A program made the position numbers. Shown piece after piece: positions 3,001-6,000 of a stretch of 64,000 bases of DNA (position 1 is the first letter of the stretch; every line of letters starts with the position of its first letter). The stretch comes from Candidatus Cloacimonadota bacterium. Lineage in GTDB: Bacteria; Cloacimonadota; Cloacimonadia; JGIOTU-2. The DNA is taken from assembly GCA_034722995.1 (NCBI GenBank), contig JAYEOL010000026.1, positions 1-64,000 on the forward strand. The letters run 5' to 3'.

Positions 3001-6000
3001 AAAATCCTTTATTGTATTCCATGCGAGTTCATAAGTATATTCAAAAGATTTTATCAGTCCTTGTTTTTCAAGTTCAGAGAGTTTACCTTTATCAATAAAT
3101 TTATTAAGCTGAAATAGTGCCTTTTGATAATTTGAAAATCGTTGTTCCCATCTAATATCTTTAAATTCCATAATTTTACATCTTATTCAAATAATTTTTT
3201 CTTTGTCAAATTTATTTAACTTCGCGAATCCTATATTAAATCGGGGGAAACTTTCGCAAAGATTTCATCATCTCAAAATAATCATCCTCTTTACTATAGT
3301 CTTATCTTCAGTAGATAATTTATAGAAATATATTCCATTAGATAGTTCTTTTCCATTCTCATCTCTTCCATCCCAGACAACTTTTATAAGTTCAGAGTTC
3401 GGAATTCGGAATTCGAAATTCTTAACTAACTGACCTTTTATGTTATAAATCTTTATCTGTGCCGATCTGTGTAAATCTGTGGCTGAAAAAGAGATTGTGG
3501 TAGATGTGCTGAAGGGATTGGGATAATTTTGCTTAAGTAAAATCGGATGCGAATCTGTTATCTCATCATTAACACCTACACAAGGTATAGTAACCTCCAC
3601 TAAATTAGATGGGTCTGATTCACCATCCTCATAAACTGCGGTCACATAATAATTATAGGTTCCATTCTCAAGTCCAATATCATTAAATTCTGTTGCCGGA
3701 ATATATACTACTGCGATTAAATAATCGTTTCTATAAACTTTATACATAAGTAAATCACTGGTAGGAATAGGTTCAGGTGGCTCCCAACTCAGTAATACAT
3801 CGTTACCACTAACATCTGCTTGTAAATTTTGTGGTGAGGGAAAAGGAATTCTAACACTACCATTTACAACATCAGTTAAATAATTAATATTATTCACATC
3901 ACATTGGGTAAATATGAGTGAAGTTGAATCACCACAAATACCAATAACTGTAAATCCAAGATATGCGACTATTCCGCTGCCGGTAAACAAATCCTCATTG
4001 GCAATAAACACAAGCTCAACTACTCCATCAACACTTGTGTCCACATTCAAATCGTAATTCTCACTTTCTAATATTCCACCCATTAAAGTAGCATCTGGCG
4101 AACCTATTACATTGTCGTTAAATTCAATAATTATGTTCATTTCGCTTAAATTTATCAGGCTGGAAACTGTTAAAGGAATAGAAATATCTGTATCAGGTGA
4201 AGTAAGGGTATCTGGTAGAATAGCTGATGGATTTCCCCAGATATCAACACTTCCGTTTGTTACATCATCCAAAAAACTGACTTCATTTACATCAAATTGA
4301 GTAAAAGTTAAAGGAGTAGAATCATCACTGCTACCTACAACATAAAACTCAAGATATGCAACTACTCCACTGCCAGTAAACCAATCTGCATTTGCATTAA
4401 ATTGAAGTCCAATCACTCCATCAACACTTGTGTTTACTTCCAAATCATAATCCTCATTTTCTAATATGCCTCCTATTAATGTAGCGTCAGCAGAATCTAA
4501 TATACTTTCATTAAATTCTATAGTAATATTCATTGCAAAGAAATTAATTAATCCATTTACTGTTAAAGGAATAGAAATATCTGTAGCAGAATGTGCTGGA
4601 ATGTCTGGAATCATCGCTGATGGATTATCTCCTAATACAACACTAACCGTATTTGATGGGTCTGATTCTCCTTGGTCGTAAACAGCGGTTACATAATATA
4701 CATAAACTCCATTATCAAGGTCATTATCATTGAAATAAGTTGTCGGATGATAAACAACCGCAATTATATTATGATTCCTGTACAGATTGTATCTAATCAA
4801 ATCACGCTTAAGATCAACACCCTCAGGTGAGTCCCAGGTTAATGCTACATCATTTCCAGTAACTACTGCTTGTAAATTTTGGGGTGGATTTAATCTTAAA
4901 TCTCTGTCATCTGAGGAATTTCCTGAATTGCTGGCATTGGCAATACCAATCAAATTTGGTAATCCTTCTTGAGCAATTAAGAATGAAGGAATCAACAAAA
5001 TAAATATTAAACAACTGAATAAATATTTTTTCATGTCTTTCTCCTATTAAGTTATTTTATTTATAGTATAATTTCATAATATGCTGAAACTTGTCAACTT
5101 TTTTAAATTTAGAAACATAAACAAATTTATTCTGTTGATTGAGTGTCCAAATCTTTGTTACTTATTACTGAGTGCATAAAACTGTTTGCATTTATTTCCA
5201 ATACATGATACTGAATAAAAACGGAGTGCTGAAACGAGTCCCGTCCCCGATCCAATCGGGGATTCGGGAGGAACTTTCAGTCCCGACAAATCGGGACGAA
5301 AAGTTCTCCCTCCCAATATATTGGAAGTGCTTGTTTTACAGAGTCGTCACGGACCAATCTGTGGCGAACACCCCAATTGCTCTTTTCAACAAAATTTTGC
5401 CATCGTCAGGGAGTGGTCCCTGACGGCTCCTTTTAATAAAGTAAACTATATTATGCGCCTAATAGTAACTAATTTTCAATGAGCTTTACAATCAATTCAT
5501 TATTAACAGTTTCAAAACAACTTTTAGGTAGATAAAGTGTATAAATACCTTTTCACCTTTTTGGTTGGTGTTTTTTCAAACTCTTCTGGCGACAGTTCAA
5601 TTTTTGTAATTGGGCAGTAAGGAGGTAATTGGTGATTTATAAATTTTCGGTTTTCCTCCATTCTCACTGTTAACTTTTTTTCGTTAATTCCTTTAGCATC
5701 TGCTAATTCTAAATCAGGATAAATCAATGCAATGAGTTTTTTATTCTTTTGAACCACGAGTGATTCCTGTATAAATGGTAAATTGTTAAGTTTTGCTTCT
5801 ATCTCTTCTGGATAGATATTTTGTCCTGAAGGTCCCAAAATCATACTCTTACATCTTCCTTTTATAAAAATAAAACCATCCTCATCAACTACTCCCAGGT
5901 CTCCTGTATGTAGCCATCCATCTTTATCAATTGCCTCATTCGTTGCTTCTTCATTTTTATAGTAACCTAACATCACATTTTCACCCCGAACTAAGATTTC

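Follow-up and report, generated by a model that had tools for sequence, protein, structure and literature searches.

Two loops of T9SS sorting domains in Cloacimonadota are encoded by repeat arms and are probably overwritten by short-tract recombination

Two loops beside the YNxKGQ turn of the C-terminal sorting domain (CTD) of T9SS cargo proteins are encoded by repeat arms in an uncultured Candidatus Cloacimonadota bacterium, read unlike each other in orthologues of sister species, and have probably been overwritten by short-tract recombination. The genome studied (G000) comprises 1.89 Mb at 33% GC and is 97% complete; the window, that is the whole stretch of 64,000 nucleotides analysed (C26:1-64000), contains the features listed in Table 1. 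In a profile search, residues 504-586 of the focal protein score above the curated cut-offs, with 41 bits against 27 for PF18962 and 43.4 against 23 for TIGR04183. SprA, PorV and PorU, representing the T9SS translocon and sortase, are likewise found in the host above their cut-offs; queries for GldM and GldN matched in none of nine genomes, yet the controls gave no match either. CTD proteins are present in Cloacimonadota according to the accessible part of an earlier account (PMC8542988).

An AlphaFold model of the CTD derived from 84 CTDs is a beta-sandwich with a mean pLDDT of 87.8 and predicted strands at residues 15-20, 29-33, 39-44, 53-57, 70-77 and 82-89. Its best Foldseek matches in the PDB are PorU (6za2), PorZ (5m11) and a chain of a T9SS-substrate complex (8glk_D), with E values of 1e-4 to 8e-4, and over 84 CTDs G37 is invariant while Y33, N34 and Q38 are conserved to at least 90%. 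The type-A CTD is described as having a conserved beta3-beta4 turn and C-terminal strand, its other loops being variable (PMC11285876). By comparison with that description, as far as the available portion goes, YNIKGQ is likely to be the essential beta3-beta4 motif, and the first and second rewritten loops, termed L1 and L2, would be the beta2-beta3 and the beta4-beta5 loop, respectively.

Table 1. Coordinates of the focal gene, its sorting domain and other repeat-bearing features of the window
Feature	Coordinates	Strand	Remarks
Focal gene	3268..5034	-	588-aa secreted protein with fn3 and repeated Ig-like domains and a C-terminal T9SS type-A CTD
Focal CTD	3268..3528	-	NYPNPF...RMIILR; beta-sandwich in the AlphaFold model
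Core of the focal CTD	3424..3456	-	IKIYNIKGQLV with the putatively essential L-beta3-beta4 turn; protein kept, synonymous sites replaced between orthologues
L1 of the focal CTD	3455..3483	-	Solo three-unit GxxExxY-type arm, giving ATDLHRSAQ; model residues 21-28
L2 of the focal CTD	3391..3420	-	7-nt tandem array (four-helix-bundle-type arm), giving NFEFRIPNSE
Four-helix-bundle cassette	21690..22170	-	Gene flanked on each side by inverted 7-nt arms (approximate limits); exemplifies the source family of L2
Four-helix-bundle gene	21751-22074	-	TIGR02436 / PF05635
Free intergenic GxxExxY-type arm	28631..28653	+	Site in the sister species has another arm type with nested elements
Second CTD	52720..52974	-	L1 arm at 52903-52932 (SATDLHGLSQ); best-matching gene of the sister species has a different L1
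Third CTD	54836..55099	-	L1 and L2 in the next two rows
L1 of the third CTD	55019-55057	-	Nested palindrome (QPRELGA)
L2 of the third CTD	54947-54985	-	Degenerate 7-nt array (SIDNHQSSI)
Gene-less GxxExxY-type hairpin	62513..62590	.	Pair of inverted arms where the IleRS gene starts
7-nt array in an IleRS loop	63238..63276	+	In frame (KFKVKSKKLKVK)

Profiles match 8 GxxExxY genes and 26 four-helix-bundle genes in G000, and many of these cassette genes lie between inverted arms, which consist of 9-10-nt units for the former and of 7-nt units for the latter. The arm class of L1 is that which flanks TIGR04256/PF13366 (PD-(D/E)XK) genes and the class of L2 that which flanks TIGR02436/PF05635 genes. 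The survey's finding was that GxxExxY-type arms encode the loop before IKIYN in many of 69 sorting domains, and an independent gene set again yields 69 CTD genes. With a GxxExxY unit motif drawn from cassette flanks of relatives, at least two units are present in 14 of the 69 L1 zones and at least three in 12, all of them on the sense strand; this is close to the 17 of 69 loops with two or more arm motifs counted before, and lower because the stricter motif misses arms that are split by nested palindromes. Three-unit arms are absent from the rest of the CTDs and from 125 kb of cargo bodies and number 54 in intergenic DNA, against 5 in the interior of other coding sequences (1.22 Mb), so that the claim for this loop stands, GxxExxY-type arms having a density of 2.5 per kb in L1 versus 0.004 per kb in other coding sequences.

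The single rewritten loop of the survey corresponds to L1, but a second loop, which follows KGQLV, has a repeat class of its own. A motif-free period-7 detector locates 7-nt arrays in L2 of 21 of the 69 CTDs (4.1 per kb versus 0.003 per kb in other coding sequences) and, elsewhere in the genome, 56 in intergenic DNA and 4 in other genes, with none in L1 or in cargo bodies. The two arm classes almost never swap loops: 7-nt arrays were seen inside L1 in 0 of 73 and 1 of 109 CTDs, and no GxxExxY arm lies downstream of the core among 304 CTDs from four genomes. L2 also accepts other REP ends, belonging to several repeat classes, and like-for-like replacement is therefore strict for L1 only. Nested palindromes, which had been noted in the tags before, reach 1.46 per kb in CTDs as against 0.025 in other coding sequences and 0.74 in intergenic DNA, a ratio that is inflated because some of the patterns came from CTD examples, and they occur at two further CTD sites beyond L1 and L2. 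The example peptides ATDLHRFTR (contigs C19 and C44), TTKNTKDTK (C27) and ATKSHEK (C74) are indeed encoded in the genome, but the focal gene reads differently (Table 1), and the loop spacing of 23-41 aa becomes 25-43 aa when recounted from NYPNP to IYN. All counted CTDs read open through the terminal strand.

Within the CTDs the arms are solo and most of them substitute for the native loop at near-constant length, whereas the intergenic copies in G000 include arm-spacer-arm units. None of 14 CTD arms has a partner arm within 400 nt past the stop codon, and a larger hairpin spanning the end of the gene, with the CTD arm as one of its halves, is therefore ruled out. Chance and low complexity are ruled out by genome-wide coding controls, by a reversed-pattern control (0 in 201 genomes) and by part-shuffled arms.

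Three-unit L1 arms recur in relatives, namely in 22 of 109 CTDs examined in G001, 27 of 94 in G002 and 4 of 28 in G003, taken from about 150, 151 and 40 matches listed, respectively. Across the phylum an arm directly 5' of IYNxKGQ is found in 42 of 201 genomes (reversed control 0), and among the genomes searched the pattern is confined to two Cloacimonadota families, f1 (9 of 14 genomes besides G000) and f8 (32 of 51), with none in the other families. Of 87 genomes in family f6, 60 have GxxExxY genes and none has the CTD arm pattern, so that the presence of these genes is insufficient for arms to appear in CTDs. A narrower pattern run on all GTDB representatives returned 39 loci, of which 34 are Cloacimonadota CTDs (some redundant) and 5 are free arms in other phyla followed by DNA reading IKIYN or IRIYN; since the pattern demanded these residues, the latter show only that such a junction occurs naturally. 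A Bacteroidales MAG gave one match, to a gene resembling those of Cloacimonadota, for which transfer or mis-binning is possible. With a pattern fitted to Cloacimonadota-like CTDs, no arm was found in CTDs of 401 genomes from the phylum of a Flavobacterium genome.

The survey had also proposed that the loop is a repeatedly rewritten hot spot, on a tree that it regarded as weakly resolved; orthologous pairs now support this directly and free the claim from that tree. G001 is a sister species of G000, with a fourfold-site distance of 0.197 and a median identity of 93.4% across 179 genes, and its orthologue of the focal gene has 88% protein identity. Between the two, L1 changes from SATDLHRSAQ to NLATKSHEKPR and L2 from NFEFRIPNSELIK to ILTPMTNDQCQMTN, and identity by segment runs from 96% upstream and 95% in segment N to 55% in L1, 79% in the core and 55% in L2 before returning to 95% in segment C. 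The same comparison was made for 28 pairs from G000 and G001 with at least 83% upstream identity over 550 nt, 21 of them arm-bearing and 7 arm-free, from which a frameshifted CTD on contig C5 and one duplicate partner were omitted. L1 differs in 20 and L2 in 18 of the arm-bearing pairs, for which a mixture estimate puts the replaced fraction at 0.95 [0.80-1.0] in L1, 1.0 in the core and 0.90 in L2, as compared with 0.36 in N and 0.39 in both C1 [0.17-0.64] and C2, the flanks thus being replaced too in about one third of pairs. The replaced fraction in the arm-free pairs is 0-0.14. Among reciprocal best-match pairs, loops have changed in 27 of 27 that bear arms versus 3 of 13 that do not, loop replacement is seen again in 3 of 6 pairs between G003 and G002, and one gene shows four loop combinations across four genomes.

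The presence of different repeats at the same gene in sister species suggests that the loops are likely to have been overwritten again and again. A replaced fraction of 0.80-0.95 would correspond to about 1.6-3 events per locus, a rate some 8-15 times as high as synonymous divergence per site. The last strands are replaced less often, perhaps because they are under selection to pack against the cargo, which beta6 is reported to contact (PMC11285876), or because their homology is lower. Orthology was judged by upstream similarity, and a few tandem genes on C59 and C8 may be paralogues. The genomes compared pairwise are all MAG-type; repeat-induced mis-assembly is possible for single genes but would not account for in-frame, class-specific swaps in several genomes. 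Arm-free CTDs have a median best anchor identity of 0.74, with none at 80% or above, as opposed to 0.87 and 12 for arm-bearing ones, and because they lack close paralogues their stability is not evidence that arms trigger the events. Contigs of runs X1, X2, X4 and X5 contain no loop variant within the species; X1-X4 belong to one study, which may include the source, and unitigs end at the arm. One X5 contig spans both flanks over unread letters, its short side being 27 nt, and offers a hint only.

The new loops probably stem in part from other CTDs. For a replaced loop, a paralogue in the same genome is usually a better match than the orthologue, and an internal tract closest to such a paralogue is found between orthologous flanks, as is expected of gene conversion. 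The L1 type is weakly linked to the adjacent bases and has no link to the last strands. On a tree of DNA downstream of L2 (138 CTDs, 111 columns), which serves the change count only, L1 type changes 79 times, where the minimum is 10 and shuffled types give 91.6 +/- 2.9. The typed CTDs carry about 11 L1 types, with labels assigned by the author. In 99 typed CTDs the L1 and L2 types form 46 combinations against a null of 50.6 +/- 2.2 and so reassort almost freely; mutual information between the loops is slightly above its null (p=0.018), so that they are not fully independent. As a loop is moved together with its neighbouring bases and the 33-nt core, most changes are read as conversion from paralogous CTDs, and gene conversion among paralogues is most likely the main engine of loop change. 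Free elements have probably contributed as well, for 65 CTD arms include 60 distinct ones and the closest of 182 free arms is 3.05 edits away, versus 4.3-4.9 for length-matched part-shuffled arms (one zero-distance row being present in this test). The arm of the focal gene in G001 matches a free arm of G000 across 26 nt. Repeated import is needed because many of the L1 types match distinct free arm types. The refutation that the survey had offered for its own idea, a few ancestral insertions followed by gene conversion, is accordingly most likely right about the engine and falls short on the supply of types.

Turnover also takes place outside the CTDs. The 128 non-CTD repeat sites of G000 include 20 for which both flanks were found in 1.08 Mb of G001, and, classed by eye, about 6 are unchanged, 9 hold a different arm from their own class, 4 have no repeat and 1 is ambiguous; 1 of 21 L1 loops is retained between these genomes versus the roughly 6 of 20 sites. 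The IleRS loop was read in 18 genomes: 13 have no array there and 5 have one, built from differing 7-nt units, with three of the filled loops exactly 21 nt longer. In RNase R, 3 of 12 genomes have a whole hairpin, of which two variants occur (L418 and L426 were left out of the IleRS and RNase R comparison). Like-for-like turnover is therefore a property of these repeats in the lineage that is amplified in the CTD family.

It is proposed that the loops of an ancestor acquired founder arms, perhaps with the aid of AT-rich codons resembling natural arm flanks, and that the majority of later changes would be gene conversion from paralogous CTDs. Free elements would supply new arm types time and again through like-for-like replacement, as at the single-copy intergenic, IleRS and RNase R sites, and selection would retain versions that are in frame, free of stops and on the hydrophilic strand, together with the core peptide. 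Initiation of such events by the arms, through the GxxExxY nuclease or the four-helix-bundle protein, is a candidate mechanism. A bolder and rather doubtful extension is that the GxxExxY and four-helix-bundle cassettes constitute an undescribed repeat-rewriting system, in which the proteins recognise arms of their own class throughout the genome and trigger like-for-like replacement, with CTD loops turning over at about ten times the rate of synonymous sites. If this were true, the loops flanking the essential T9SS motif would be a natural combinatorial cassette library in two Cloacimonadota families and a genome-wide readout of the activity of two very common proteins of unknown function.

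Plain concerted evolution, in which a few old insertions were followed by ordinary homology-dependent conversion or tag shuffling with the repeats passive, would explain why the core is replaced along with the loops, why the loops match paralogues and why the arm-free CTDs are those without close paralogues; tracts limited to a short homologous domain would also cover its middle more often than its ends. This reading is nevertheless unlikely, as the L1 types, many of which share their end bases with the free types that they match, call for repeated import at a single site, as do the further arm types in a second family. Moreover, arms change with no paralogous flanks present in the single-copy genes for IleRS and RNase R and at about 9 of the 20 non-CTD sites, and L1 and C1 differ in replaced fraction (0.95 versus 0.39) though they are about equally distant from the domain ends.

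Less probable still is independent re-insertion, by which whole elements would be inserted and lost repeatedly at preferred AT-rich targets with no conversion. It fits the clean presence or absence at 4 of 20 sites, the whole hairpin of RNase R, the IleRS arrays of 21 additional nt and the finding that nearly all CTD arms are unique, but not the solo state of the CTD arms, the replacement of the native loop at near-constant length or that of the core, which is not repeat DNA.

The orientation of the arms bears on their possible function. Reversal in place introduces a stop in 28 of 34 L1 loops and in 29 of 51 L2 loops, and raises GRAVY from -1.12 to +1.80 and from -0.60 to +0.63, respectively; the A-rich strand is the sense strand in 49 of 51 L2 arrays. 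The stops and the hydrophobicity of reversed loops mean that the strand bias requires no RNA function, and the intact frames suggest that rewritten loops are tolerated in secretion. Because selection appears to act on frame, strand and core only, the loops are surmised to be tolerated passengers and not functional variable regions. Adaptive diversification, in which variable tag loops would benefit the cell through evasion of phages or predators or through tuning of export and the repeats would serve as a cassette library, is improbable to a degree that leaves it well behind, since cytoplasmic housekeeping proteins receive the same repeats; the position of the loops outside the strands of the predicted model and the faster turnover of L1 relative to intergenic arms would be in its favour. 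The changes are block replacements, and G000, in which controls were detected, has no PF00078 match and hence no reverse transcriptase was found, on which grounds a diversity-generating retroelement is rejected. That the arms are RNA signals in cargo mRNAs, kept for regulation because the cognate proteins bind or cleave there, is barely credible, for although their position near the 3' end and their strand are fixed, the strand bias is accounted for as above, the arm type is not kept in orthologues and there is no partner arm.

Overwriting by short-tract recombination, the preferred reading, means that selfish repeats do not merely land in proteins but keep rewriting the same two loops of a secretion signal in anywhere from dozens to more than 100 genes. 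Like-for-like turnover of GxxExxY and four-helix-bundle arms, seen at the level of orthologues, opens a way to test what two widespread protein families of unknown function do. It also provides a natural map of the positions of a T9SS tag that are open to replacement or insertion, the loops beside the beta3-beta4 turn, which may be of use in secretion biology and tag engineering.

In cassette-type antigenic variation, segmental exchange between conserved anchors yields mosaics. No silent donor cassettes or dedicated recombinase were identified here. The gingipains of P. gingivalis are similar in that segments are exchanged between conserved anchors among related genes to give mosaics, but in the CTDs selfish repeats are the source of the segments, which belong to the export tag instead of the exposed cargo (PMC5266723, in the part available). 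In-frame repeats (PMC10969869, PMC3733652, PMC4679880) and gene conversion of surface proteins (PMC5266723) are already known from the accessible portions of these sources. The two-site, class-specific rewriting of T9SS tag loops appears to be new, no paper on it having been found: a literature search, with subscription papers and supplements outside its scope, returned no description of arms in CTDs or of their replacement. Relative to the known T9SS type-A CTD (TIGR04183/PF18962), the fold, the conserved turn, the C-terminal strand and the variability of the other loops are the same, and what differs from the portion of the description available is that the loop variation is written by repeats (PMC11285876).

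REPs and REPtrons with their RAYT share with the present repeats a small cognate gene, gene-less intergenic copies and occasional in-frame copies, and the nested palindromes resemble GTAG/CGTC REPs; the cognates of the L1 and L2 arm classes, however, are GxxExxY (PF13366) and four-helix-bundle (PF05635) proteins and not the Y1 HUH protein RAYT, the units are tandem and of 9-10 or 7 nt, and reuse and replacement of sites, both seen here, do not feature in the available part of that account (PMC3733652). Heptamers of Beggiatoaceae and cyanobacteria similarly form 7-nt tandem arrays that are mostly intergenic and sometimes coding, but, in the part of the report at hand, their coding copies are mainly at protein ends, whereas the arrays described here occupy a fixed internal loop and change their unit between orthologues (PMC4679880). 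A further likeness in coding DNA is to Rickettsia palindromic elements (RPE), small non-coding repeats that lie in frame inside functional genes and, like the CTD arms, add tolerated peptides to intact genes (Ogata et al. 2000, 2002, as relayed in the accessible part of PMC10969869). RPE are palindromes of about 150 bp that encode a conserved peptide in unrelated genes, whereas the CTD arms are solo stretches of 25-30 nt that encode many peptides, sit in the same two loops of one domain in dozens of genes, with a class of their own for each loop, and take the place of the native loop, with swaps between orthologues.

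An IleRS loop in the window carries an in-frame 7-nt array, and among the 18 genomes read this loop is filled in five and empty in 13, with two to three types of unit in the filled loops. In G001, the sister species of the genome studied here (G000), a palindrome is nested within the array. RNase R contains a whole hairpin of the GxxExxY type in frame; the hairpin is present in three of the 12 genomes read, occurs as two variants and lengthens the protein by 28 to 30 aa. In-frame arms were also seen in three other G000 proteins, named by reading their sequences: a putative ABC transporter, an adenylosuccinate-synthetase-like protein with the arm in its tail, and an Fe-S oxidoreductase-like protein, this last case being absent from G001.

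Within the T9SS sorting domains (CTDs), in-frame palindromes occur at two sites (L053, L019, L051 and other loci) in addition to the loops before IKIYN (L1) and after KGQLV (L2). The orthologues of the 588-aa focal protein in the relatives G002 and G003 (L003 and L004; 72% identity) end in an entirely different, arm-free CTD, so that exchange of whole tags happens too. One G000 CTD on contig C5 has an apparent frameshift within its L2 7-nt array that would remove the last strands. The nearest G001 gene is intact; the frameshift may be a cost of such arrays or an assembly error. A Cloacimonadota-like CTD gene (L432) that combines an arm in L1 with a REP in L2 was found in a MAG titled Bacteroidales, and its presence there may reflect transfer or mis-binning.

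Immediately after the focal gene lies a toxin-antitoxin pair, and G001 and the window begin to diverge shortly beyond a palindrome common to both. A contig of sequencing run X1 differs from the window across a small intergenic palindrome, possibly through inversion between its arms or as an assembly artefact.

Positions of in-frame repeats and associated features (contigs numbered with C belong to G000)
Feature	Position	Remark
IleRS loop array	window 63238-63276
RNase R hairpin	C8:13676	L421
ABC-transporter-like protein, arm	C64:22878-24777
Fe-S oxidoreductase-like protein, arm	C3:18403
Adenylosuccinate-synthetase-like protein, arm	C51:33232-34561
CTD palindrome site 1	directly after PNPF	peptides PDKIG, PRFNRG
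CTD palindrome site 2	last hairpin	peptide GGSASGG
Frameshifted CTD	C5:20877-21056
Toxin-antitoxin pair	window 2424-3171	MntA/HepT-like (HI0074 family)
Intergenic palindrome	window 3218-3252
Split four-helix-bundle genes	C31:14476; C44:31718-32362; C32:49804-50223; C22:69968

Several four-helix-bundle genes of G000 are interrupted at one common position, directly 3' of the SxGANY codons, by what looks like a nested, site-specific element with short inverted ends and a cargo of unrelated DNA. Split matches of comparable layout are also seen in relatives.
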